Shown one piece after another: positions 10,848-30,314 of a stretch of 64,000 nt of DNA; the first letter of the stretch is position 1, and each line of letters opens with the position of its first letter. The notes beneath the pieces are model-generated. The model was not told where the DNA came from, searched no databases, and was given only the letters and a program-made list of their open reading frames with translations. A program made the translations under genes and the position numbers. Source of the DNA: Nannocystis bainbridge (GTDB taxonomy: Bacteria > Myxococcota_A > Polyangia > Nannocystales > Nannocystaceae); assembly GCF_028368995.1 (NCBI RefSeq), contig NZ_JAQNDL010000001.1, positions 704,001 to 768,000 of the forward strand, in the 5' to 3' direction.

Positions 10848-11702
10848 ATGCCGACACGTCGCTCGCCGCTCCTCGTCCCGCTGGTCCTCTTCGCCTGCAC
10901 CGATCGCCCGCTCGGCGAGACCGAAGCCAGCACCGCCGGGCCGAACACCAGCGAATCGCCGCCTGCCACCGGCACCACCGACGACCCGCCGGGCACCGCG
11001 ACCACGCCGACCTCCACCACGACGTCGCCGCTGCCGACCACCGCGACCACCGACGCGACCACGGCCACCACGATCGATCCCGGCGCCACCACGACCGTCG
11101 ATCCGAGCGCCACCACGGCCGTCGATCCCAGCACTGGCACCACCGTCGATCCCGGCGGCACGACCGTCGATCCCGGCGGCACCACCGACGATCCGCAGCC
11201 GAAGCTCGACCTCTTCGAACCGGAGCCGACCTCCGGCCTGTTCGGTTGCACCCTCGACGCTCCCGCCGGCACCATGGTCAGCGGCAGCTCGACGCTCGGC
11301 CCATTCGCCGCCCAGCGCGCCTATTTCGGCTTCGACACCCTCGGGGAGGAGCCGTACTCGCCGCGGCTCCTGTTCGTCTCGCCCGCCGCCGATCCGGCCG
11401 TCGAGGTACAGCAGCTCAATGGCAGCACCGGCCCGATCCTCCACGGCTTCGCGTGGAGCGATCCGTTCGAAAAAGGCGGCTGGATCGGCCAGTGGCCGCT
11501 CTCGGCCTACGTCTTCGCGGAGGGCATGGTGGGTGACATCGCCCGGCCCGAGACCGTAGTCATCGACGCGCGGCTCGGCAACTGGGACGCGCACGATCCC
11601 GCCGATCCGCCCCGGCTCGTCGGCAGCCTGCAGGGCGGGGTCTCCGGCCCCTTCGACGCCGTGTTCTGCGACAAGCTGGTGGCGATCATCATCCCCGAGT
11701 GA
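10848..11702 (+). CDS. Thr-rich lipoprotein
   Basis: MPTRRSPLLVPLVLFAC lipobox, TTVDP repeats, globular C-terminal domain. Confidence 0.75.
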   Translation: MPTRRSPLLVPLVLFACTDRPLGETEASTAGPNTSESPPATGTTDDPPGTATTPTSTTTSPLPTTATTDATTATTIDPGATTTVDPSATTAVDPSTGTTVDPGGTTVDPGGTTDDPQPKLDLFEPEPTSGLFGCTLDAPAGTMVSGSSTLGPFAAQRAYFGFDTLGEEPYSPRLLFVSPAADPAVEVQQLNGSTGPILHGFAWSDPFEKGGWIGQWPLSAYVFAEGMVGDIARPETVVIDARLGNWDAHDPADPPRLVGSLQGGVSGPFDAVFCDKLVAIIIPE

Positions 11703-14537: not shown

Positions 14538-16712
14538 ATGACCAAGCCCGCGGACGACGAAGAGGACCGCTTCCAGATCCTCGCCACCGCCTCGCTCACC
14601 CTGAGCGGCGCCCGCGTGCTCAAGCAGGGCGACACCTTCGCCGTGTTCGACCGCTTCGGCGACATCCGCCCGTCCGGTGCCTTCGGCGCCCAGGGCCTCT
14701 ACCACGACGGCGCCCGCTTCCTCTCGGCCCTGCGCCTGCGCCTCGGCGGCCAGCCGCTCCCGCTGCTCAGCTCGACCGTCGGCGCCGACAACATGGTGTT
14801 CGTCGTCGACATGATGAACCCCGAACTCCCGCCCGGCGGCGACGTCGTCGTCCATCACGGCACCCTGCACGTCGCGCGCGAGAAGTTCCTGTGGCAGGCC
14901 GCCTGCCACGAGCGGATCCACGTCACCAACTACGGCCCCGACGCGGTCGAGCTCGAGCTCGAGCTCGCCTTCGCCGCCGACTTCGCCGACGTGTTCGAGG
15001 TCCGCGGCACCCGCCGCGACCGTCGCGGGGCCATGCATGCACCTGTCCTCGGGGACAGCTCCGTCGAGCTCGCCTACACCGGCCTCGACGGCCTCGTGCG
15101 GCGCACCCGACTCGGCTTCGACCCCGCGCCCGCGGTCTGCGCCCCCGACCGCGCGCTGTACCGGCTTCACCTCCCCGCCCGGGTCACCCAGGAGCTCCAC
15201 GTCACCGTCGCCTGCGAGCTCGGCGACGACGAGCCCGCCGCCTGCCCGCGCTTCGCCGTCGCCCACGCCCGCGCGGCCGAGCGCCTGCACGAGCTCGCCG
15301 CCCGCGACTGCACCATCGAGAGCTCGAGCGAGCAGTTCGACGACTGGATCCGCCGCTCGCTCGCCGATCTGCGGATGATGATCACGCGCACGCCCGCCGG
15401 CCTGGTCCCGCACGCCGGCGTGCCGTGGTTCTGCGCCCCGTTCGGGCGCGACGCGATCGTCACCGCCCTCGCGGCGATGTGGGTCAGCCCCGACCTCGCG
15501 CGCGGCGTCCTGCGCTTCCTCGCCGCCACCCAGGCCGATCGTGCGGACCCGGCCACCGACGCCGAGCCCGGCAAGATCGTCCACGAGATCCGCGGCGGCG
15601 AAATGGCCACGCTCGGCGAGATCCCGTTCCGCCGCTACTACGGCAGCGTCGACGCCACCCCGCTGTTCGTCGTGCTCGCCGCCGCCTACCACGAGCACAC
15701 CGGCGACGGCGCGACGATCGCCGAGCTGTGGCCGCAGGTCGAGCGCGCCCTGCTGTGGATCGAGCGCCACGGCGACTGCGACGGCGACGGCTTCGTCGAG
15801 TACGGCCGCCGCGCCGAGCACGGCCTGGTCCATCACGGCTGGAAGGACTCGCACGACGCCGTGTTCCACGCCGACGGCAGCCCGGCCGAGGGCCCGATCG
15901 CGCTGTGCGAGGTCCAGGGCTACGTGTACGCCGCGTACCAGGGCGGGGCGCGGCTGGCCGAGCTGCTCGGCGACGAGGCCCGGGCCCGGGTCTTGCGGGC
16001 CCGCGCCGAGCGCCTGCGGGCCCGCTTCGACGCCGCGTTCTGGTGCGAGGAGCTCGAGGGCTACGCGCTCGCGCTCGACGGCGGCAAGCGGCCGTGTCGC
16101 GTGCGCACCTCGAACGCCGGCCAGTGTCTGTTCAGCGGCATCGCCCTGCCCGAGCGCGCGCCTCGCCTCGCCGACCGCCTGCTCGCCGACGACATGTTCT
16201 CCGGCTGGGGCATCCGCACCGTCAGCGCGTGCGAGCGGCGCTACAACCCGATGTCGTACCACAACGGCTCGATCTGGCCCCACGACAACGCGCTTATCGC
16301 CCTCGGCCTGGCGCGCTACAACCTCAAGGACCACGTCCTGCGCGTCCTGCAGGCCATGTTCGAGGCCTCGGGCGCCGCCGAACTCAGCCGCCTGCCCGAG
16401 CTGTTCTGCGGCTTCCCCCGCCGCGACGGCGCCGGCCCGACGATGTACCCCGTCGCCTGCTCGCCGCAGGCGTGGGCCGCCACCGCCCCGCTGCTGCTGC
16501 TGCAGGCCGCCCTCGGCATGCAGGTCGAGGGCGCCGAGGGCCGCGTCCTCTTCCTCCGCTCCGCCCTGCCCCCCGCCCTCGAGCGCGTCTCGATCCGCAA
16601 CCTCCGCGTCGGCGCCGGCACCATCGACCTCGCCCTCCATCGCCACCCCGAAGACGTCGGCATCCACATCCTCGGCCGCCGCGGCCCCGTCGAGATCGTC
16701 GCCGTCAAGTGA
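14538..16712 (+). CDS. amylo-alpha-1,6-glucosidase (glycogen debranching enzyme family)
   Basis: LKQGDTFAVFD, ADFADVFEVRG, AGVPWF..FGRD, EPGKIVHE, YYGSVDATPLF, GWKDS, YHNGSIWPHDN, ACSPQAWA. Confidence 0.92.
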   Translation: MTKPADDEEDRFQILATASLTLSGARVLKQGDTFAVFDRFGDIRPSGAFGAQGLYHDGARFLSALRLRLGGQPLPLLSSTVGADNMVFVVDMMNPELPPGGDVVVHHGTLHVAREKFLWQAACHERIHVTNYGPDAVELELELAFAADFADVFEVRGTRRDRRGAMHAPVLGDSSVELAYTGLDGLVRRTRLGFDPAPAVCAPDRALYRLHLPARVTQELHVTVACELGDDEPAACPRFAVAHARAAERLHELAARDCTIESSSEQFDDWIRRSLADLRMMITRTPAGLVPHAGVPWFCAPFGRDAIVTALAAMWVSPDLARGVLRFLAATQADRADPATDAEPGKIVHEIRGGEMATLGEIPFRRYYGSVDATPLFVVLAAAYHEHTGDGATIAELWPQVERALLWIERHGDCDGDGFVEYGRRAEHGLVHHGWKDSHDAVFHADGSPAEGPIALCEVQGYVYAAYQGGARLAELLGDEARARVLRARAERLRARFDAAFWCEELEGYALALDGGKRPCRVRTSNAGQCLFSGIALPERAPRLADRLLADDMFSGWGIRTVSACERRYNPMSYHNGSIWPHDNALIALGLARYNLKDHVLRVLQAMFEASGAAELSRLPELFCGFPRRDGAGPTMYPVACSPQAWAATAPLLLLQAALGMQVEGAEGRVLFLRSALPPALERVSIRNLRVGAGTIDLALHRHPEDVGIHILGRRGPVEIVAVK

Positions 16713-16728
16713 GGCGCGCTGACGAAGA

Positions 16729-16780
16729 GGACATGTCCATCTCGACATGTCCTCTCGAACATGCCGCAGAGGACATGTCC
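16729..16780. repeat. 14-bp-phased CATG palindrome array (4 units)
   Basis: CATG at 16732, 16746, 16760, 16774 (two perfect GGACATGTCC), between convergent genes. Confidence 0.9.
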
Positions 16781-16798
16781 TCTGCGACACCCGCGCGA

Positions 16799-17230
16799 CT
16801 ACGACTGGCGCAGCGACGCCTTGAGCGTGATCGTGCGGACCCCGGCGAGCGCCTTGGACACCGGGCAGGCCTTCTTGGTCGCCTCGGCGATCTCCGCGAA
16901 CTTGCCCTCGTCGAGGCCCGGCACGTCGGCCTCGGTGGTCAGCTCGATGGTGGTGATCGAGAAGCCCTCGCCGTCCTTCTCGAGCTTCACCGCCGCCGAG
17001 GTGTGGATCGACCGCGGCGGCGTCCCGGCCTTCTCGAGGCCGAGCGACAGCGCCATCGAGAAGCAGCCCGCCAGCGCCGCGCCCACCACCTCTTCGGGGT
17101 TGCTGGCCGGCTGGCCCTCGAACCGCGAGGCGAACGAGAACGGGATCTCGGGCGCGTGCTCGGGCTTCATCGTGCCCTTGCCGGTCTTGATCGAACCTTC
17201 CCACTGAGCGCTGGCTTTGCTGATTCCCAT
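16799..17230 (-). CDS. osmC: OsmC family peroxiredoxin
   Basis: ASAQWEGSIKTGKG, FSFASRFEG, NPEE...AGCFSMALS, CPVSKAL. Confidence 0.92.
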   Translation of the reverse strand: MGISKASAQWEGSIKTGKGTMKPEHAPEIPFSFASRFEGQPASNPEEVVGAALAGCFSMALSLGLEKAGTPPRSIHTSAAVKLEKDGEGFSITTIELTTEADVPGLDEGKFAEIAEATKKACPVSKALAGVRTITLKASLRQS

Positions 17231-17657
17231 CGATGATTCTCCGGCGCGCAACGTAGCACGTCCCCCGCGCGCGGCGGCGGGCCCCGCGACCGCCGGGCCC
17301 CGCCGCAGCGGGCTCGGCCGGCAGGCTCGGCCGGCAGGCTCGGCCGGCGAACCACGGGCGAGCAGCGTTTGTCGTCCTCGCTGCCCGCGGGCGATCACCC
17401 CGCGACCGCCGCGAGCCCGACCCACTCACGCCCCGCGCAGAAGCCGTGCCCACCCGCTGCGCGAGCGCCCGACCCCGGCACCCGCCATCGAAGCGCCGGC
17501 CGCTCGATCCCGACGCGCCCTCGCGGCGCTGGCACATTCGCGGTCGCCAGCCCCGCCCGATCGCCGCGATGCGTCGCTCACCCGCCCGCGAGCCCGTCCC
17601 GATCGATCACAGCCGCGAGCGCGTCATGCGAACGACCACGCGGATCATGGAAGGCCC

Positions 17658-21039: not shown

Positions 21040-21859
21040 TCACGGAAGACCCCGCGCCTCGGCGATCGCGGCCCGCTCCCACGCGGCCGAGCGCGACCTC
21101 CCCTCCGCCTCGAAGAACGCCTCGATCTCCCGGACCGGGCCGTTGCGCGCCCCCGAGCGCGCGTCCTCGTAGGGCAGCGGATGCGCCCACAGGCCCGGCT
21201 CCGGCCCGAACGCATCCATCACAAGGACGCCCTCCGCGATCCGTGCCCCCCCCGACACACGCTCCGCGATCGGGACACGCTCGCCGCTGACGATGTCGAC
21301 CAGCGCGAAATCTCGCAACTCGAGCACCGGCCAACCGGGCCCGCTGCTCGGGGGCGCCATCACCTCGCGCGTGGAATTACCTCGAAAAACTTCGTCTCGT
21401 TGAGACGAAACGACGCCATCCCCACGCCCGTCAGCAGCCGCTCCCTCTCGCCGCTGGCGAGATCGACCCGCCAAAAGCTGCCTATGCCGGCTTGGTCCTG
21501 GCCGGGCAACCAGTACACCACCCGATCGCCATCGAGTTCGCGCAGGGAGAGCCCATCATTGCGCGACGTGTGCCGGTAGAAATCACGGACCTCGCCGGTC
21601 CGCGGATCCCAGAATGCCTCCACCTCGCCGGCGTCGCTCGCTCGCAAGATCCGGAACTGATCTTCAAACCAACCGCGTTGCTCGAGGTGCTCCGGCACCG
21701 CGATCGCAGCGCCCGTATCGAGCCGTGCGGCGGCCACGTAACGGTTGTCGGGGCCGACCATGGCCGCCCGTCGCGGCCCGTATGGGCTACGGACGGCGAG
21801 TTCAGTGAGCCTTCCATGTCCCAGGTCGCGCTCGTTTTCGTCCTGTCGTCGCGGACCAT
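21040..21859 (-). pseudogene. probable frameshifted remnant of a beta-propeller-like protein
   Basis: Overlapping protein-like segments in different frames (…AFWDPRTGEVR…FWRVDLASGERERL…; …LVDIVSGERVPIAERV…); composition less GC-biased than neighbours. Confidence 0.4.
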
Positions 21860-21866
21860 AAATTCA

Positions 21867-22784
21867 TCAATCCGCCGCGGGCCCGGCGAACTCCACCATC
21901 CCCACGCTGCCGACCCGCAGCCCCGCGCTCGCCCCCTCGTGCAGCCGCGCCTCCGCGAACAGCAGCCGCGTCCCCGCATCGATCTCGGGCGCGATCGCCA
22001 TCACTTCGCCCTCCACCGTCCGCCCCTCCTCGACGAACGCCACCTTCACCGCCGCGCCCAATCGCAGCCCCGCGCTGCGCGCCTCGGGCACCGCGAATCG
22101 CACCCGCCGCGCGTCCGAGATCAGCTGCACCACCGCCCGGCCCGGCTCGACCGTCGCGCCTGCGTCCACGTGGCGTCGCGCGACCTCCCCGGCGAACGGC
22201 GCCCGCAGCTGCGCCTCGACGATCCTCGCCGACGCGTCCTCCACCGTGCTGCGCTGCCGCTGCAGCGACGCGCTGGCGCTGCGCTTGCGGGCCGCCGCCA
22301 GCTTCTCGGCGTAGCGGTGCTCGCGGACCTCCGCCCCCGAGACCACCCCCTCCAGCTGCTCGGTGTCCGCGCGCAGCTCCCTCGCCCGCTGCAGCTCGAG
22401 CTCCAGTCGCTCGAGCTCGGCCTTGCTCGCAGCCCACGCCGCCGTCGCCCCTGCCAGCTCGTGGCGCTCCTCGCGGACATCGAGCGCCGCGATCACCTCG
22501 CCCGCGTTCACGTGGTCGCCGACCTGCACCTCGATGCGATCGATCCGCGAGAATTCCGGCGCCGTCAGCACCACCTCCGCCTCGGGCACCAGCACCCCGA
22601 TCATCGGCTCCGAAGCAATGACGGCAGCCGCGACCGCCGCCTCGTCCGCGCGCACCGCAGCGGGCTGTGGTGATTCGCCGGGGCCGTCCTCGTGGGAATC
22701 ACAAGCCACCGCGAAGCACCACAATCCCCACGCCGCGATCGCTGCGTGACGACGTCCTGCTGCCCTCATTACCGCGCGCCTCAT
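21867..22784 (-). CDS. efflux RND-type periplasmic adaptor (membrane fusion protein), lipoprotein
   Basis: FAVAC lipobox, VQVGDHVNAGEVIAALD, coiled coil, LRAPFAGEV, IAPEIDAGTR; ATGA overlap with the ABC gene. Confidence 0.85.
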   Translation of the reverse strand: MRRAVMRAAGRRHAAIAAWGLWCFAVACDSHEDGPGESPQPAAVRADEAAVAAAVIASEPMIGVLVPEAEVVLTAPEFSRIDRIEVQVGDHVNAGEVIAALDVREERHELAGATAAWAASKAELERLELELQRARELRADTEQLEGVVSGAEVREHRYAEKLAAARKRSASASLQRQRSTVEDASARIVEAQLRAPFAGEVARRHVDAGATVEPGRAVVQLISDARRVRFAVPEARSAGLRLGAAVKVAFVEEGRTVEGEVMAIAPEIDAGTRLLFAEARLHEGASAGLRVGSVGMVEFAGPAAD

Positions 22785-24988
22785 GACTCCTCCCTCTCAT
22801 AAAGCCGGCGGTACGCGCCGCCGTGGCTCATCAACTGGCGGTGCGTCCCCGACTCGACGATCCGTCCGCCGTCCATCACAAGGATCAGGTCCGCGTCGAC
22901 CACCGTCGACAGCCGATGCGCGATCACCACGCGGGTGCAGCGCAGCGACGCCAGCGAGCGCTGAATCGCCGCCTCGGTCACCGTATCGAGGTTGCTGGTC
23001 GCCTCGTCGAGCAGCAGCATCGCCGGCGCGCCGACCAGCGCGCGCGCCAGCACCAGTCGCTGGCGCTGGCCGCCCGACAGCGACGCCCCGCGGTCGGCCA
23101 GGATCGTGTCGTAGCCCATCGGCAGGGCCGCGATCTCGTCGTGGATCGCCGCCCGCCTGGCCGCGTCGATCACCTCGTCGAGGCTGATCTCGGGCCGCCC
23201 GAGCGCGATGTTCTCGCGCACCGACACCCCGAACAGGTCGCCGCGCTGCGTCACCACCCCGAGCTGCTCGCGGACGCTGCGCAGATCGAGCCCGGCGATG
23301 TCGAGGCCGTCGTAGAGCACCCGCCCGCCCTGCGGCGCATAAAGGCCGACCAGCAGCTTGGCCAGGGTCGACTTGCCTGCTCCCGACGCGCCGACCACCG
23401 CCACGAACTGGCCCGGCTCGACCCGCACCGACACCTCGCGGACCGCCGGCGGCACCGACTCCGAGTAGCGGAACGTCACCGCCTCGGCCTGGATCCGCCC
23501 CGACAGCCGCGGCGCCCGCTGGACCCGCGACGCGTCCTGCTCGGGCTCGGTCTGCATCACGTCTTCGATGCGCTCGAGGTAGCTGCCCAGCACCTGGAAC
23601 TTGACCGCGACGCCGACCAGCGTGGTCATCGGCCGCAAGAACCCCGAGCCCAGCGCCGACAGCCCGAGCATCGCCCCGAGCCCGAGCTCTCCGTCCAGCA
23701 CCAGCTTGGTGCCCACGCCCAGGATCACCAGCGGCGCCGCCATCGCGAACGCGTCGAGCAGCGAGCCGATGGTCGCGTCGAGGCGACCGCGCCGCAGCGA
23801 CACGTTGAGCGAGTCGACGAACAGGTTGGACCAGCGATCGACCGCCCGGTACTCGGCGCCCATGCTCTTGAGCGTCTCGATGCCGGTGAGCATCTCGACC
23901 TCGTAGCTCGAGGTCCGCGCCTGCACCGCCAGGCCCTCGGTCATCAGGTCGCGCTGGACCCGGCGCGTCGCAGCGTACAGCGCCAGCTGCAGCGACGCGA
24001 GCACCAGCACCACCGCGCCCATCAGCGGGCTGACCCAGAAGATCAGCACCAGGTACACGCTGACCAGCGTGCCGTCGAGCAGGGCCGACATGGCCCCCGA
24101 CGTGAGGATCTCGCGGACGGTGGCGTTGCTGCCGAGCCGCATCAACAGGTCGCCGGCCGACCGCTTGTGAAAGAACGAGTACGGCAGGTCGATCAGGTGA
24201 TCGAGGAAGCCGATCGTCATGTCAGCGTCGAGCAGCGTGCGCAGCTGCACCAGCAGGTTGGCGCGCACCAGCGAGCTGACGAAGGTGAAGAGCACCATCA
24301 TCGCCAGCCCGGCGACCAGCACCCCGAGCAGGTCTGTGTCGTGGCGCGGGAGGATGCGGTCGACCAGCAGCGTGGTCATCAGCGGCAGCGCCAGCGCCAG
24401 CAGCTGCACCAGCACCGACATCAGCAGCGCGCGGCTCCACAGCGCGGGGTAGGCCAGGATCCGGCCGAAGTAACGGCGCACCAGCGGCTGCTGGCGACCG
24501 CCGGCCGCGAACGCCTCGCCGGGCTCGAGCAGCAGCGCCACCCCGGTGAACGCCTGCTCGAACTCGGCCCGCGACACCCGACGCCGCCCGTGCGCCGGAT
24601 CGAGGATCACCGGACCGCGGCGATCGACCCGTTCGAACACCACGAAGTGGTTGAACTCCCAGTGGAGGATCGCGCCGGCCTGCAGCATCTCGAGCTCGTC
24701 GAGGTCGTCGATGCGCACGCCGCGGCCGCGCAGCCCGTAGCCGCGAGCGGCCCGCAGGATGCCGAGCGCGCTGACGCCGTTGTGGTCGACCCCCATCGCG
24801 TCGCGCAGCTCGTCGAGCGGGTGGGCCCGGCCGTGATAACGCAGCACCATGCTCAGGCAGGCCGCGCCGCAGTCGGTCGCGGTCATCTGCTGCACGTGCT
24901 CGAGCCGACGCGGCTGCCCGATCGCCCCCAGACGCTGCAGGGCAGGGAAGCGCCGCGACAGCGCACGATCTCGTTCGGTAGTTGGCAT
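22781..24988 (-). CDS. peptidase C39-containing ABC transporter (PCAT)
   Basis: QQMTATDCGAACL, ILHWEFNHFVV, ILDPAHG; TM domain; GASGAGKST, LSGGQRQR, LLLDEATS, IAHRLST. Confidence 0.95.
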   Translation of the reverse strand: MPTTERDRALSRRFPALQRLGAIGQPRRLEHVQQMTATDCGAACLSMVLRYHGRAHPLDELRDAMGVDHNGVSALGILRAARGYGLRGRGVRIDDLDELEMLQAGAILHWEFNHFVVFERVDRRGPVILDPAHGRRRVSRAEFEQAFTGVALLLEPGEAFAAGGRQQPLVRRYFGRILAYPALWSRALLMSVLVQLLALALPLMTTLLVDRILPRHDTDLLGVLVAGLAMMVLFTFVSSLVRANLLVQLRTLLDADMTIGFLDHLIDLPYSFFHKRSAGDLLMRLGSNATVREILTSGAMSALLDGTLVSVYLVLIFWVSPLMGAVVLVLASLQLALYAATRRVQRDLMTEGLAVQARTSSYEVEMLTGIETLKSMGAEYRAVDRWSNLFVDSLNVSLRRGRLDATIGSLLDAFAMAAPLVILGVGTKLVLDGELGLGAMLGLSALGSGFLRPMTTLVGVAVKFQVLGSYLERIEDVMQTEPEQDASRVQRAPRLSGRIQAEAVTFRYSESVPPAVREVSVRVEPGQFVAVVGASGAGKSTLAKLLVGLYAPQGGRVLYDGLDIAGLDLRSVREQLGVVTQRGDLFGVSVRENIALGRPEISLDEVIDAARRAAIHDEIAALPMGYDTILADRGASLSGGQRQRLVLARALVGAPAMLLLDEATSNLDTVTEAAIQRSLASLRCTRVVIAHRLSTVVDADLILVMDGGRIVESGTHRQLMSHGGAYRRLYEREES

Positions 24989-24994
24989 GACGAC

Positions 24995-25960
24995 CTACAG
25001 GCGTTTGAGCGCCGGGATGAGGGCCTCGAGCACGGTCTCGGAGCGCAGGCGGGCCTCGAGCACGCCCTGCATGCCGTCGTAGACCCGGTACTCGGTGTCG
25101 TCGGCGACGAAGGTGTCCGCCGGCAGCTCGGTCTCCACCACCACCACCGGGCCCGCCAGCGCGATCGCACCTTCACGATCGCGCCCGAGGTAGCGCATCG
25201 CCTCGGCGGGGCCGACCACCTCGTCGGCCACCACGCGCAGCGCCACCTCGTGCCGGCTGTCCGGGAACCCCTCGAGCTCGAGGAACAACCGGCTGTCCCC
25301 CGCGCGCAGCAGCGGCCGGTAGTGCCCGGGGAACAGCCCGAACACGACCGTGCGCGCCGTGTCCTGCTCGACCGCCACCACCGCGTCGCCCGGCGCCACC
25401 GGCTGCCCCGGCCGCACGCGCACGTCCGACACCCTGCCCGGCTGCGGCGCGACGATCTGCCGCTCGCGCACCCGCGCCTGCGCCAATTGCAGCTGCGCCT
25501 TCAGGATCGCCAGCCGCTCGCGCCTGGCGTCGTCGGCCGGCGCGCGCAGCAGCTCGACGAGTCGCTGGCGGTACTCCTGCTCCACGCGCGCCAGCTCGGC
25601 CCGCGGCGCGGCGTCGTCGAGCTGGACCAGCACCTGCCCGGTAGCGACGCGCTGACCAGTGCTCACCGCGATGTGCTGCACGGTGCCGGGCACGTCCGAG
25701 GTGACCGCCACGCGGCCCTCGCGGCGCACCACCGCGACGCCCTGCGCGTACTCGCCGATGCTCGCGCTGGTGGCGAACGCGACGCTCGCGACCAGCAGCG
25801 CCAGCGTCACGCCGACGGCCCAGCGCGTCCACGTCGCCACGATGTGCAGCGGGCGGCCCGGTCCCGCGCCGCGGCGGTGCGCCTGCACGGCCGCCTCGCG
25901 GAAGATGGCCCGCCGCGCCCCCGGCGAAGCGCTGCTCGGCTCGTCGAACGACTCGGTCAT
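24995..25960 (-). CDS. HlyD family secretion adaptor
   Basis: N-terminal IFREAAV motif, TM helix, VSTGQRVATGQVLVQLD, IVAPQPGRV, YDGMQG. Confidence 0.85.
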   Translation of the reverse strand: MTESFDEPSSASPGARRAIFREAAVQAHRRGAGPGRPLHIVATWTRWAVGVTLALLVASVAFATSASIGEYAQGVAVVRREGRVAVTSDVPGTVQHIAVSTGQRVATGQVLVQLDDAAPRAELARVEQEYRQRLVELLRAPADDARRERLAILKAQLQLAQARVRERQIVAPQPGRVSDVRVRPGQPVAPGDAVVAVEQDTARTVVFGLFPGHYRPLLRAGDSRLFLELEGFPDSRHEVALRVVADEVVGPAEAMRYLGRDREGAIALAGPVVVVETELPADTFVADDTEYRVYDGMQGVLEARLRSETVLEALIPALKRL

Positions 25961-27153
25961 CGCACCCCCCGTTCCCCGATCACGTCGTGACGCGCCGGCT
26001 CCTCGCGGCGCACCACGACCAGCCCGTCGAGGACCTCGTGCCAGGCTGCGCGCTGAAATTCATGGTTGATGGGGCGAGCCTCGACGGAGCCCAGCGCCCG
26101 CAGCTCCGCCGCGTCGAGGTAGCGCAGCGCCTGCTCGGGCCCCAGCGCCCGGCCCTCGAGCGACGCGGGCGGCGCGACCGAGAGCTCCCGACCCGCGCGC
26201 CCGCGCGGCTGGGTGGCCCCCGACCAGGCGGAGAAGCCGATCGCCGCGGCCCGCTCGCCGTACTGCGCGTGCACGTACTGCCCGAGCGGCGAGAACCCGC
26301 GATAGGCCGCGATCGCCTCGAGATCCTTGGCCGCGTGCACGGTCGCGCACCACACGATCGTCTTGCCCGCGTCGCCCTGCCGCCGCCGATGCCACACGAA
26401 GTTGGCGAACATCGACCGGTCGCGTTCATTAAAACCATCGCGCCGATCGACGACAAAATCTCGCGCGACCCACCGCGCCAGGTTGCTCGCCATGACCAGG
26501 TCCTCGGCCGCTTTCGGCGACGGCGCCGCGCCGGCGATCGCCGCCTGGATGTCCGCGAGACATTTCACGAGCGCCGCCTGCGTCTCCGGCGAATGCGGGT
26601 GGTCCTCGTCGTAGGTCCACAGGTGATGCCGCGCGATCTGGGCCTCGCACGCGTCCTTGCGCCCCGGCGGCAGCCAGGCCGCCAGCACCGCCGGCAGCTC
26701 TCGCTGCGCATAATAAGCCGTGGAGTGGAGCTGGTCGTCGAGCCCGCGCAGCTTCAACCGGCCCGCCGCCGCCGCCGCGTGCATGAACCCGATCCACGGC
26801 TGCGTCTCGCGGGCCTCCGACCACACCGCGCCGATGGCGTTCGCCACGTCGCGCGCCGTCGCAGTGCCCGCGGCGTACTTGTGCTCGAGCGCGAGCATCT
26901 CGTAGATGTCGCTCTCGATGAACAGCGCCTCGAACCCGCACGAATCGACCAGCGCGCGCACCAGCGCGGTCTTGATCGCCCAGGTGCGACCGTCCCCGTG
27001 CTCGCTCTCGCCGAGCAGCACGACCTGCTTGTCGCAGACATCGGCGACCAGGCGCTCGAGCTCGCGCTGCTCCGCGCTCGCGCTCGCCGGCGCCGAGGCG
27101 GGCCCCGGCGCGCACGCGGCGAGGGCCAGAAACACGATCGTGGGCCGCTTCAT
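25957..27153 (-). CDS. erythromycin esterase (EreA/EreB) family lipoprotein
   Basis: MKRPTIVFLALAAC lipobox; VVLLGESEHG, GFEALFIES, RGLDDQ, RDRSMFANF.W, KTIVWCATVHAAK, PLG.YV, LDGLVVV. Confidence 0.85.
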   Translation of the reverse strand: MKRPTIVFLALAACAPGPASAPASASAEQRELERLVADVCDKQVVLLGESEHGDGRTWAIKTALVRALVDSCGFEALFIESDIYEMLALEHKYAAGTATARDVANAIGAVWSEARETQPWIGFMHAAAAAGRLKLRGLDDQLHSTAYYAQRELPAVLAAWLPPGRKDACEAQIARHHLWTYDEDHPHSPETQAALVKCLADIQAAIAGAAPSPKAAEDLVMASNLARWVARDFVVDRRDGFNERDRSMFANFVWHRRRQGDAGKTIVWCATVHAAKDLEAIAAYRGFSPLGQYVHAQYGERAAAIGFSAWSGATQPRGRAGRELSVAPPASLEGRALGPEQALRYLDAAELRALGSVEARPINHEFQRAAWHEVLDGLVVVRREEPARHDVIGERGVR

Positions 27154-27170
27154 GGTCGTCGCCTCGACCT

Positions 27171-28316
27171 TCAGCCCCGCACGATCGGCAGGTGCACGCG
27201 CGCCTGGTAGTGCGCCAGCGCGGCCGCGGCGCCCGCCCGAGTCTGCCAGTCGGCCCACGTATCGGTGTACGGATCGTAACCGCACTTGAGCGGCTTGCTG
27301 TCCTCGACCGCCGGGTCGGCCAGCAGCGCCCGGCAGCCGGTGCACGCATAACGGTACGGACAATCGCGGCAGACCTCGATCTCGTCGTTGCGGGCGGCCC
27401 AGACCCGGCGAAACGCCTCGTCCGCGACCACCTGCGCCAGCGAGACCGCCCGGTGGTCGCCGAACGACCCGCGCATGGCCGGGCAGTTGCGGACCTCGCC
27501 GCGCTCGTCGATCGCCAGCTTGCGATTCAGGCAGCCGCTGAATTGCCGCAGCTCGTTGAAGGTCGGCGTGGTCGGCGGCAGCAGCTGCCGCTTGCCGATC
27601 TGCCCGCAGTCCAGCGCCGACTCGAGCGGCTTGACGGTCATCGAGATCTCGAGCGTCAACAGCGTCGCGGCGTCCCCACGCGCCCCGTAGTCGACCGCGA
27701 GCCGCCGCTCCTGCGGCGCCGAATGGACCGTGAGCCCGGTGATGAGGCGATGGGCGCCGACCACCGCCACGTAGTCGTCGTCGCTGCGCCCGGGCTCGTG
27801 GGCGAGGATCGCCTCCAGCGTCTGGATCGACGAGCCCCGGCACAGGCGCGCCAGCTCGTCGAGCTCGGCCAGGCCGAACACCCCGGCGTAGCCCCGCACC
27901 TGGAGGTGCTGGCAGCCGAGGCCGCTCAGCTCGGCGACGATCTTGCGATAGTCGTGGTGCTGCCCGCGGACGTCGACGATGGCGTTGTGGATCGCGCAAG
28001 GCGCGTCCCAGGCCCTGGAGATCTCCGGAAACGCCGCCGCGTCGGCGACGACCGCCACGTATTCGTTCGCCAGCAAGAAATCCAGGAACGCCACGAAATC
28101 GTCGTGCTCCTCGGGCGACAGCGCGTCCACGATCTCGCCCAGGCGGCGGGCCCGGAACAGCGCGAAGAACGGGAAATAGGCCGACGGGAACGTCGAGATG
28201 TGCTTGCGGGTGAGGTCGTAGATCGCCGACGCGGCGGCCCCCTCGACCGGCACGCAGTCGGAGAAGAGGAACACGTACTCGTCGCGTCGGTCGCGTAACA
28301 ATTGAGTGGAGTCCAT
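27171..28316 (-). CDS. SPASM-domain peptide maturase of grasp-with-SPASM type (no radical-SAM motif)
   Basis: LFSDCVPVEG...IYDL, CGQI, CLNRKLAIDERGEVRNCPAM, IEVCRDCPYRYACTGCR, KPLKCGYDP; no CxxxCxxC. Confidence 0.88.
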   Translation of the reverse strand: MDSTQLLRDRRDEYVFLFSDCVPVEGAAASAIYDLTRKHISTFPSAYFPFFALFRARRLGEIVDALSPEEHDDFVAFLDFLLANEYVAVVADAAAFPEISRAWDAPCAIHNAIVDVRGQHHDYRKIVAELSGLGCQHLQVRGYAGVFGLAELDELARLCRGSSIQTLEAILAHEPGRSDDDYVAVVGAHRLITGLTVHSAPQERRLAVDYGARGDAATLLTLEISMTVKPLESALDCGQIGKRQLLPPTTPTFNELRQFSGCLNRKLAIDERGEVRNCPAMRGSFGDHRAVSLAQVVADEAFRRVWAARNDEIEVCRDCPYRYACTGCRALLADPAVEDSKPLKCGYDPYTDTWADWQTRAGAAAALAHYQARVHLPIVRG

Positions 28317-28319
28317 CGT

Positions 28320-28520
28320 TCAAAGCTCCGGTTTGGAGATCGGTTTGCCCGCGTGACGGGCGTACATCACCGAATGGCGGTACTTCGGCAGCTCGAGCGT
28401 CGCCCGCTGCGTCGCCTCGGCGTCGACGATCGCGGCGCTGATGACGATCCGCGCGTAGCCCAGCGGCAGGCTCGCCTTGAGAAGGGGGGTCAGGGTCATC
28501 TCTTCAAACTCTTTGCTCAC
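28320..28520 (-). CDS. small hypothetical protein inside the RiPP operon
   Basis: 66-aa ORF overlapping the ATP-grasp stop and ending 3 nt before the SPASM start; no recognisable motif. Confidence 0.45.
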   Translation of the reverse strand: MSKEFEEMTLTPLLKASLPLGYARIVISAAIVDAEATQRATLELPKYRHSVMYARHAGKPISKPEL

Positions 28521-29499
28521 GCGCCACCAGCCTCTCTGCGATCATTCGCTCGATCGCCATGTTGCAGCGCTCCGACAGCGGGCCGAACTGCCCGACCGGG
28601 TTGACCTCGAGCAGGTAGTATTCGCCGTGCGCGTCGACGATCATGTCGAACGAGCCGGTGTTCAGATCGAGCGAGCGCGCCAGCAGGGACAGCTTGGCCT
28701 CGATCTCCGGCGGCAGGCGAAACGGGACCACCCGGTTCGGTCTTTCGCTGTTGTACTTGCGATAGTCGACGCGGGTCTGCGCGTCGCTCTGCGAGAAGAT
28801 GGCCGCCGCGCGAAACTGGTCGTCGAGGAAGAACACCCGCAGCTCGAAGGCCTTGTCGACGTACCGCTGGAACAGCGACGGCGCCATGCGCTCGCCCACG
28901 CCCTCGAGCACCCGCGGCTCGAGCGCCTCGGTGTACGTGAAGTACCCGGTCCTGCTCTCGGTCGTGTCGAACAGATAGAGGCCGTCGGACATCGCCTTGG
29001 TCACGTAGCCGCAGCCCGAAGCCACCAGGCTCTGCGCGTGGCTGCGCAGGTTCGACACGCTGTACGGCGGCGTGCGCAGGCCGACCTCGCGCGCGCGCCC
29101 CAGCACCACCAGCTTGTTGGGGGCCGAGCCGTTGGCGCTGCCCAGCACGGCGCTGCGCCGCCGCAGCAGGTCGTGAAAGTGGTCGCGCAGGGTGCGGTTC
29201 TCCAGGTCGAGCTTGTGTTGCAGGTGCCGCGCCAGCGCCGGGTGCTCGGGCGCCGCCACGCTCGGGAACAGGCCCTTGAACCAGAAGCCGCCCTTGCGCA
29301 GCCAGACGCTCGTCACGTCCTCGAGGCCGAACGCGTCCTCGTCGACCCGGACGGAGAAATCATCGTCCGAGATCGTCAGCTCGACGCTGTACTCCTCGTC
29401 CGCGTTGATCCGCACGACCTTCGCGTCGCTCAGGTGGTCGATCCATCGCATCACGTCGAGGGTCGAAGGATCCCCGGAATTGCTGAAGATCAAGATCAT
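28504..29499 (-). CDS. ATP-grasp peptide maturase (graspetide synthetase, grasp-with-SPASM type)
   Basis: MILIFSNSGDPST..V..W, SVWLRK, NKLVVL..A..VGL.TP, PSLFQRYVDKAFELRVF, AAIFSQ....T.VDYR, LNTGSFDMI, LEVNPVGQFG; GGAG RBS. Confidence 0.92.
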   Translation of the reverse strand: MILIFSNSGDPSTLDVMRWIDHLSDAKVVRINADEEYSVELTISDDDFSVRVDEDAFGLEDVTSVWLRKGGFWFKGLFPSVAAPEHPALARHLQHKLDLENRTLRDHFHDLLRRRSAVLGSANGSAPNKLVVLGRAREVGLRTPPYSVSNLRSHAQSLVASGCGYVTKAMSDGLYLFDTTESRTGYFTYTEALEPRVLEGVGERMAPSLFQRYVDKAFELRVFFLDDQFRAAAIFSQSDAQTRVDYRKYNSERPNRVVPFRLPPEIEAKLSLLARSLDLNTGSFDMIVDAHGEYYLLEVNPVGQFGPLSERCNMAIERMIAERLVAREQRV

Positions 29500-29591
29500 G
29501 GCAGGCTCCATCGCTCGTATCGCCCGCATCGGGCCGGAGAGGCGCGGCCTCCACCGGCACATGCCGGTAGAGGCCACGACCCTCGCGCGGG

Positions 29592-29753
29592 TCAGTCGTT
29601 GTCGTTGACGCCGTCGATGTGGCACTTCGACTTCGTGCCCGAGCTCTCCGGGGGCATCCCGCCGGTCACCTGGCACAGCTCGTCCGCGCCGAGCGTGTTG
29701 GCCGTGAACTTGGGCAGCTGCTTCTCTTCGTTCTTTCTAAGGTTCTTTTTCAT
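29592..29753 (-). CDS. RiPP precursor peptide 3 (53 aa, double-glycine leader)
   Basis: MKKNLRKNEEKQLPKFTANTLGADELCQVTGG-MPPESSGTKSKCHIDGVNDND. Confidence 0.88.
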   Translation of the reverse strand: MKKNLRKNEEKQLPKFTANTLGADELCQVTGGMPPESSGTKSKCHIDGVNDND

Positions 29754-29770
29754 GACACGATTCCATCTCT

Positions 29771-29786
29771 CCCCGTTCGCACGGGG
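29771..29786 (-). promoter_or_regulatory. stem-loop upstream of precursor 3 RBS
   Basis: CCCCGT-GCGA-ACGGGG on the transcript strand. Confidence 0.55.
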
Positions 29787-29860
29787 TTCTCTCCGCGCTC
29801 GCCCCGTACCATCGGGGGCGAGCCTCATGGTCCATTCTTGCGTGTTCGCTTCGCCGCGGC

Positions 29861-30043
29861 TCAGGCCACGCCGCCGCCGCCGTCGCCGTCGTCGATGCCG
29901 TCGATGTGGCAGATCGACCACGTGCTGCCGGACTCCGGCTCCCTCCCGCCGGTCACCCGGCACAGCTCGTCCGCGCCGAGCGTGCGGCCGCTGAACTTGG
30001 GGAGCTTGTTCTCGTGGTCTCGCTTCTTCATGGGCTTATTCAT
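29861..30043 (-). CDS. RiPP precursor peptide 2 (60 aa, double-glycine leader)
   Basis: MNKPMKKRDHENKLPKFSGRTLGADELCRVTGG-REPESGSTWSICHIDGIDDGDGGGGVA. Confidence 0.88.
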   Translation of the reverse strand: MNKPMKKRDHENKLPKFSGRTLGADELCRVTGGREPESGSTWSICHIDGIDDGDGGGGVA

Positions 30044-30059
30044 GGTCTAGTTCCATTCC

Positions 30060-30077
30060 TTCCCGCAGGTGCGGGAA
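30060..30077 (-). promoter_or_regulatory. stem-loop upstream of precursor 2 RBS
   Basis: TTCCCGC-ACCT-GCGGGAA on the transcript strand. Confidence 0.55.
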
Positions 30078-30113
30078 AATCATCGTTCAAGACGGTACCG
30101 CTGCCAGTCACTG

Positions 30114-30281
30114 TCAGTTGCAGCCGTCACAAGTACCGTCGACGTGGCAGACGCTGTGCGTGTTGGCGGTCTCCGGCGGCATCCCGCCCTTGACCTGGCA
30201 CAGCTCGTCCGCGCCGAGGGTCTGGCCGTGGAACCTCGGCAGCTTCTTCTCGTCGTCGCGCTTCTTCATGGGCTTGTTCAT
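30114..30281 (-). CDS. RiPP precursor peptide 1 (55 aa, double-glycine leader)
   Basis: MNKPMKKRDDEKKLPRFHGQTLGADELCQVKGG-MPPETANTHSVCHVDGTCDGCN. Confidence 0.88.
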   Translation of the reverse strand: MNKPMKKRDDEKKLPRFHGQTLGADELCQVKGGMPPETANTHSVCHVDGTCDGCN

Positions 30282-30297
30282 GTCTAGTTCCATTCCT

Positions 30298-30314
30298 TCC
30301 CGTTTCGCACGGGA
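30298..30314 (-). promoter_or_regulatory. stem-loop upstream of precursor 1 RBS
   Basis: TCCCGT-GCGAA-ACGGGA on the transcript strand. Confidence 0.55.

Follow-up and report, generated by a model that had tools for sequence, protein, structure and literature searches.

A stretch of 64,000 nucleotides from the Nannocystis bainbridge genome (contig NZ_JAQNDL010000001.1, positions 704,001 to 768,000; hereafter the window) carries a gene cluster that almost certainly belongs to group 14 of the graspetides, the grasp-with-SPASM family, and whose product is very probably an exported cross-linked peptide. One operon of ten genes, including three paralogous precursors, had been described at this position in an earlier note, and all ten open reading frames (ORFs) are present and intact as described. 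They share one orientation (minus strand) within 21867-30281; the gaps from the ligase gene through the last gene measure -17 to +17 nt. The genes are the following:

30114-30281, minus strand: precursor P1, 55 aa, with a 22-aa core after the double-glycine (GG) site, MPPETANTHSVCHVDGTCDGCN; group 14 in the PMC13097080 supplement
29861-30043, minus strand: precursor P2, 60 aa, with a 27-aa core, REPESGSTWSICHIDGIDDGDGGGGVA; group 14 in the same supplement
29592-29753, minus strand: precursor P3, 53 aa, with a 21-aa core, MPPESSGTKSKCHIDGVNDND; group 14 in the same supplement
28504-29499, minus strand: ATP-grasp ligase (graspetide synthetase), 331 aa; TIGR04192 263.1 bits (cut-off 230)
28320-28520, minus strand: small protein of the LPL family, 66 aa (59 aa if translation starts at the ATG at 28499)
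27171-28316, minus strand: SPASM protein (RRE, remnant radical S-adenosylmethionine (SAM) barrel and SPASM domain), 381 aa; TIGR04193 261.5 bits (cut-off 175)
25957-27153, minus strand: erythromycin-esterase-like lipoprotein, 398 aa; PF05139 68.1 bits (cut-off 26.4)
24995-25960, minus strand: HlyD-like membrane-fusion adaptor, 321 aa
22781-24988, minus strand: C39 peptidase-ATP-binding cassette (ABC) exporter, 735 aa; PF03412, PF00664 and PF00005 above cut-off
21867-22784, minus strand: second periplasmic adaptor, RND membrane-fusion protein (MFP) type, 305 aa; TIGR01730 116.8 bits (vs 94.9)

The ligase and the SPASM protein both score above the curated cut-offs, which upholds the earlier assignment to the grasp-with-SPASM graspetide clusters. 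The three precursors match rows 17156, 17158 and 17159 of supplement file 2 of Carter et al. 2026 (PMC13097080; here and below, papers and supplements are cited for the parts of them that were available), all in group 14, the P2 row beginning 4 residues later. Their core motif is common to Bacteroidota, Alphaproteobacteria and other Myxococcota, and is also found in Paraflavisolibacter, Ferruginibacter, Allosphingosinicella, Novosphingopyxis, Hellea and Kofleriaceae. A new precursor family is ruled out by this listing and by the recurrence of the motif, and a new graspetide family is not supported, for the same reasons. The locus itself is not a discovery; it is of a known, catalogued and apparently uncharacterised kind. 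In the published table, group 14 takes up at least rows 15336 to 17349; of its 61 rows in one supplement part, 52 are from Bacteroidota (6 from Acidobacteriota, 2 from Pseudomonadota, 1 from Myxococcota), in agreement with the remark that the pairing is known mainly from Bacteroidetes. Every group 14 member is reported to co-occur with a SPASM protein, the product for the group being unstated in the available parts (PMC13097080). The same gene layout was described as branch 5 by Makarova et al. 2022 (PMC8939145), who named the small gene the LPL family, found a Cluster 23 protein in almost all branch 5 loci and stated that characterised graspetides are mostly protease inhibitors; a 2026 preprint places such clusters on mobile elements, without chemistry. 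The remaining ORFs of the present operon have matches to families other than that of Cluster 23. A characterised group 14 product, an LPL complex, a ligase-SPASM fusion and a natural thioester were not found in a literature search that covered few subscription papers, so that the description of the family as uncharacterised stands within the literature covered.

The protein previously called "SPASM-only" does contain a SPASM domain (PF13186, 25.3 vs 21.5 bits), but the word "only" does not apply, since an RRE and a remnant radical-SAM barrel are also present. Its predicted model has a mean predicted local distance difference test (pLDDT) score of 92 and was built from 117 alignment rows, i.e. 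the query and 116 of the 120 matches listed (155 were found), with one near-identical and three partial rows left out. Residues 8-91 of the model superimpose on the solved RREs of PbtF (Z 9.0, root-mean-square deviation (rmsd) 2.6, 80 aligned), lasso B1 (Z 8.5, rmsd 2.4, 77 aligned) and TbiB1 (Z 8.2, rmsd 2.6, 76 aligned), and on PqqD (Z 7.4, rmsd 2.7, 83 aligned). The SPASM domain has eight cysteines in two sets, 237/262/278/328 and 316/319/325/345. The radical-SAM motif CxxxCxxC occurs in 0 of the 117 aligned rows and in none of 69 near-full-length metagenome proteins, which rules out an active radical-SAM enzyme on motif. Because the CxxxCxxC loop is missing and the barrel is shortened, SAM cleavage is not expected.

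A thioether-type modification has been suggested for branch 5 (PMC8939145). The SPASM protein could thus be a tailoring enzyme whose iron-sulfur (Fe-S) clusters, alone or together with an outside radical-SAM enzyme, modify the core, for example by forming a Cys thioether. Such a role would fit the conserved polar barrel residues, the conserved core Cys of this subfamily and the retention of the eight SPASM cysteines, each present in 116-117 of the 117 rows, and all of them in 69/69 near-full-length proteins from 80 kept metagenome loci (a count that is partly built in, these proteins having been found with Cys-bearing patterns). We nevertheless consider it unlikely. The radical-SAM motif is absent, and by analogy with SPASM ligation the eight protein cysteines would fill both Fe-S clusters, so that no open iron would be left; one Fe-S site is lost in the natural fusions described below, and the barrel is filled by LPL in the predicted complex. 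In addition, 12 Cys-free precursor candidates were picked by eye from 8 loci, 7 of which have all 8 SPASM Cys, the eighth locus (L106) being outside the SPASM Cys count. Since these candidates adjoin intact SPASM genes, they argue against thioether formation as a family-wide role of the SPASM protein. We lean slightly towards a different arrangement, a three-part synthetase composed of the ligase, LPL and the SPASM protein, which would make exported peptides with two or three rings.

The ligase aligns to the structures 5IG9, 5IG8, 7M4S and 7MGV, and has the residues K129, K168, Q211, E219, D245-Y-R247, D285, E298 and N300, which presumably have the catalytic roles of conserved ATP-grasp ligase residues and which, except for Y246, vary little or not at all among 51 relatives. 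Its residues 187, 197 and 200 align with V182, D192 and N195 of MdnC, which are leader-binding residues (PMC7823629). The gene for LPL is located 3 nt before the SPASM gene. The small ORF (28320-28520) has no family match in the profile search and was assigned by motif and position, with an LPL motif at 18-20 and KPISK at 59-63. The arrangement recurs in metagenome loci with enough DNA: the ligase gene is upstream of the SPASM gene in 55/55, and a K-x-[IVL]-S-[KR] motif lies between the two in 53/55 (raw count). In 56 LPL rows, picked by eye from ligase-SPASM gaps and relatives, S62 is invariant (56/56 free rows), K59 and P19 are nearly so, and conservation is higher in the tail than in the LPL motif; these rows have no conserved GG site or acidic acceptor. 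LPL without GG was also described in PMC8939145, where two roles were suggested for it, as PqqD-like helper to the SPASM protein or as partner of the ligase.

In the complex modelled from ligase, SPASM protein and LPL, LPL scores 0.87, against 0.35 for the best of 3 controls; in calibration, the pass mark was cleared for 116 of the 157 solved pairs and for 2 of the 215 mismatched ones. At least 92% of contacts recur between runs, and the partner pLDDT is at least 76. The modelled I61 and S62 of LPL contact residues 111, 113, 137, 139 and 168 of the remnant barrel, while LPL 44-50 contact residues 8-32 of the ligase N-domain. Among the modelled contacts with the ligase are 187, 197 and 200, the positions aligned to the leader-binding ones of MdnC, and among those with the SPASM protein are 236-240, 261-262, 326 and 328; the RRE is absent from the listed contacts. 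LPL is therein predicted to bridge the ligase and the SPASM barrel, and we infer that the LPL motif itself would be at the leader-type surface of the ligase. This suggests that LPL is needed together with the ligase and the SPASM protein, whereas the co-expression scheme of the earlier note omits it.

Most characterised graspetide ligases act alone, and MirC is partly a solubility partner (PMC13097080). The ligase of this cluster might likewise recognise the leader and cyclise the core by itself, with LPL and the SPASM protein stabilising or regulating it (as chaperone, or as iron or redox sensor), and LPL does still score 0.35 when the SPASM protein is replaced. This appears quite improbable, given that the model places LPL over the leader site of the ligase itself, that the RRE residues are kept even in fusions lacking one Fe-S site, and that the leaders here lack, as judged by eye, the Phh(x)h motif of PMC8939145.

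The fusions are single-frame ligase-SPASM proteins of 713-797 aa, encoded in four genomes of the window's family (L040:5379-7520, L041:480-2849, L042:6986-9331 and L043:7007-9400). A search returned 8 clusters (P0121-P0128), three of which coincide with these loci, giving nine distinct rows; their database names cover at most the ATP-grasp part. In the four fusions checked, the catalytic residues of the ligase are kept, and C237/262/278/328 are lost together while C316/319/325/345 remain, the same cysteine pattern being found in all nine. That four cysteines are lost as one set supports the grouping of the eight into two Fe-S sites. The conserved RRE residues are retained; the hairpin region of the ligase varies among them and was not placed in the predicted fold of a fusion. 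The linker has no LPL motif. It does contain an island of 25 residues, 11 of whose columns are invariant (vs 0/26 and 0/30 in the flanks), and which ends in [KRT]PI[LV]R ([KR]PI[LV]R in 8/9 rows). The motif turns up in 10-15 of 250 shuffles per protein. An LPL origin of this island is plausible. In a further locus (L034:8444-9778), an LPL-like segment (5.6 bits, E 0.0045, against 5 proteins) and a SPASM protein that keeps all 8 Cys are found in one ORF, with a Cys-free precursor candidate at 11158-11385.

These proteins also bear on the possibility that LPL is a substrate or cofactor peptide, which would bind in the manner of a precursor and be modified on Ser62 or on a flanking Lys, near the first Fe-S site. 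In favour of this, S62 is invariant in the free rows, LPL is modelled against the SPASM residues listed above, the Ser and the Fe-S site are lost together in the fusions, and LPL-like proteins have been tabulated as candidate precursors: by eye, 4 of the 61 group 14 "precursor" rows in part 313 of supplement file 2 of PMC13097080 resemble LPL proteins. We regard it as very improbable, because LPL lacks a conserved GG site or acidic acceptor, and because its equivalent is apparently built covalently into the L034 protein, and probably into the fusions, which fits a tether better.

The precursors P1-P3 are 60-70% identical in pairs (E 1e-16 to 1e-26), and each consists of a basic leader ending at the double-Gly site, followed by a core of 21-27 residues. 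The calculated monoisotopic masses of the linear cores are 2286.876 (P1), 2686.157 (P2) and 2229.963 Da (P3), and 2197.784 Da for that of the fourth precursor described below. They have no Pfam match, and NCBIfam gives only a weak one (TIGR04497, E 0.035, far below cut-off); the PFFARFL leader and TxKxPSD core of microviridins (motifs from PMC7823629) are absent. For comparing the cores, positions were counted from the conserved Cys in 31 related precursors, which were selected by similarity and by a C-x-x-D-G anchor, whose invariance is therefore built in. Thr, Ser or Cys is present at the donor positions -7 (31/31), -4 (31/31) and -2 (30/31), and at the neighbouring positions -6, -5, -3 and -1 in 13, 9, 3 and 1 of 31, respectively. 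Acceptor positions +7 and +9 hold Asp or Glu in 30 and 26 of the 31. Since P1 has no acid at +9, its product is likelier to have two rings. Cys occupies 9 of the 93 donor cells (-7, -4 and -2 in the 31 precursors). This swapping of Thr, Ser and Cys, beside which a further Cys is conserved, hints at natural thioesters. Graspetide ligases have been found to form thioesters when supplied with Cys (PMC12291112), while in the available parts of PMC13097080 thioesters are mentioned only as non-native. No conserved Lys was found at any position of the 31 cores, which rules out a conserved lactam and makes the Lys amides named in the earlier note unlikely here.

Put together, the three-part synthetase would operate as follows. 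According to the model, LPL would bind the ligase, covering the surface that the activating leader uses in microviridin ligases, and its KPISK tail would enter the emptied radical-SAM barrel, tying the SPASM protein to the ligase. The SPASM protein would perform no radical chemistry; its free N-terminal RRE would hold the leader and feed the core to the ligase. ATP-grasp activation and cross-linking chemistry is established for the graspetide family, and the ligase would spend ATP to activate Asp at +3, +7 and +9 (from the conserved Cys), each activated Asp being joined to a Thr, Ser or Cys donor at -7, -4, -2 or 0 to give two or three rings; some of the links may be thioesters. C39 exporters cut after GG. 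The exporter would cleave there and secrete the cores through the adaptors and an outer-membrane channel whose gene lies elsewhere, and the esterase-like lipoprotein would open the rings of re-entering peptide for self-protection, a role that is possible rather than probable. There is precedent for graspetide ligases that depend on a partner, in rosaritide and corallotide (PMC13097080).

Several observations weigh against this scheme. The calibration counts given above hold only roughly for a run that, unlike the calibration, used three chains and custom alignments. The result may moreover be owed to a likeness to solved ligase-leader complexes (5IG9, 7MGV) or to radical-SAM-peptide complexes (5V1T, 9GMC). 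The acidic leader-binding pair of MdnC, E191/D192, aligns with R196/V197 in this ligase. Free SPASM proteins of ~35-77% identity keep C21, C135, D115, R141 and E255 in addition to the eight Cys, and such conservation would seem to exceed the needs of a plain scaffold. The invariant S62 is lost together with one Fe-S site in the fusions. As for their linker, the motif pattern was written after the sequences had been seen. The LPL profile gives the linker -4.4 to -4.5 bits in 3/4 fusions and no match in the fourth, and 20-51 of 250 shuffles score as high, so that LPL homology of the linker is not significant by profile. AlphaFold left the island unplaced (pLDDT 29-36), with nine fused rows covering it. 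Finally, the fusions group apart in a long-branched clade of their own, with a different precursor type, and may not report on the free system.

What is new here, within the literature covered, is the LPL bridge model, the fusions that lose one Fe-S site and the exchange of Thr, Ser and Cys at donor positions. With slightly less than even confidence, we propose for group 14 a type of maturase, not found described in that literature, in which a radical-SAM enzyme minus its radical site would serve as leader-binding subunit, clamped to the ATP-grasp ligase by LPL, and which in this subfamily would also make natural thioester rings. One end of LPL would in that case act in trans as a leader, and its other end as a pseudo-substrate that stays in place permanently.

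Synteny of the cluster extends to N. exedens (four precursors), N. punicea (three) and other relatives (one to four). TIGR04193 is above cut-off in 8/401 genomes of the class, the source genome (G000) included; in the phylum-wide sample it is found in G000 only (1/401), that sample having missed carriers seen in the class sample. Precursors are present in 6/11 genomes of the genus, and in 5/5 of those at least 90% complete. In a tree of 62 ligases, midpoint-rooted and with most rows lacking taxonomy, the window ligase belongs to a 12-row clade of 55-68% GC (support 100/99), which is nested in a 24-row clade (95/98) including low-GC loci with the same core motif. Codon use of the cluster genes lies at the 22nd-66th percentile of the genome's 5610 long ORFs, and their GC content at third codon positions is 0.86-0.97. 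The GC-adapted codons that had been taken to argue against a very recent transfer are thus ordinary for the genome; such a transfer of the main cluster is not supported, and was set aside on this codon use and on the precursors in the 5/5 genomes.

The source genome contains a fourth precursor, detached from the main cluster (C5:437101-438213, ORF 437150-437317, minus strand). Together with 1.1 kb of upstream DNA it is 88% identical to the 5' end of the L037 cluster, to which the main cluster is 82% identical. It lies ~2.9 kb from a nonribosomal peptide synthetase-like gene, with a tandem repeat in between. It may be a fragment that has moved, the result of a later transfer, or an artefact of the assembly.

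Other loci vary in content. L035 (G294) has a full cluster of the ten-gene type with one precursor and a ligase of 55% GC, compared with 65-68% in Nannocystis, and is possibly a less adapted copy. In L039 (G354:C2:701000-718000), the genes for the first precursor, the SPASM protein, the esterase and the exporter are frameshifted, which may reflect sequencing error or decay. A gene that reads as AraC-like lies upstream of the cluster in L001 (4001-4825), L002, L036 and L037 and is not found in the window, its best match in G000 being on C4 with 53% identity. A membrane protein of ~526 aa is encoded between the ligase and SPASM genes at L107:4415-5995 and L108:4251-5831. Two more ATP-grasp ligases, 27% identical to the window's, are encoded in tandem at G000:C3:1967084-1968942, probably in a microviridin-type cluster.

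The exporter carries the motifs QQMTATDCG, HFVV, Walker A and LSGGQ; a gene for an outer-membrane channel was not found in the operon. A promoter scan gave 0 sites, and terminator-like sites numbered 4, vs 2.8 by chance. Downstream of the operon, an ORF of 133 aa without family match is located at 21360-21761 of the window (minus strand), with a terminator-like hairpin at 21413-21392. The motifs of the esterase-like lipoprotein align with 2RAD; on the EreB model it scores 16.2 bits, below the 750 of that model, and only the broad fold family PF05139 is matched. Its gene is accessory, since it is missing from L036 and has a BLAST match in only 2/47 metagenome loci with at least 1.5 kb downstream. 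A similar gene was noted in branch 4, where tailoring or resistance was left open in the available text (PMC8939145).

Group 14 appears large, and no characterised member was found; the results make its open question directly testable. If the ligase does need LPL and the SPASM protein, this shows which genes to co-express, some published "precursors" would be LPL proteins, and a ring-forming enzyme with swappable leaders would be on offer. Natural thioester graspetides, if confirmed, would add a new chemistry to the class. The cluster is well suited as a test case, with short cores, three or four natural substrates and culturable relatives, to which the single-chain fused versions in the same bacterial family add.

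Among known systems, the microviridin ligases MdnC and MdnB (5IG9, 5IG8; PMC7823629) share the ligase fold, the catalytic residues and the leader-activated hairpin site, which is covered by LPL in our model; the activating PFFARFL inside the precursor, the two ligases and the TxKxPSD core of microviridins have no equivalent here. CteB, SuiB, TigE and PqqE/PqqD agree in fold (Foldseek E 9e-7 to 2e-4, Z 10.7-11.0 and rmsd 5.3-6.9) and in the RRE-radical SAM-SPASM order of domains, whereas the protein described here has no CxxxCxxC loop and a shortened barrel. Rosaritide MirA/MirB/MirC (group 21; PMC13097080) is similar in its three Ser/Thr-Asp esters, which link three donors to three acceptors, its C39 exporter and a ligase that needs a co-purifying partner with a weakly RRE-like N-domain; that partner is however SurA-like and not a dead radical-SAM/SPASM protein, there is no small bridging protein, and the core is different. 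Closest are the grasp-with-SPASM systems themselves (TIGR04192/TIGR04193; branch 5; group 14), which share the ligase, several GG precursors, the C39 exporter and the LPL gene directly before the SPASM gene, and from which this cluster differs by its myxobacterial host in a mostly Bacteroidota group, the additional esterase-like lipoprotein, the second adaptor and the fourth precursor on another contig.

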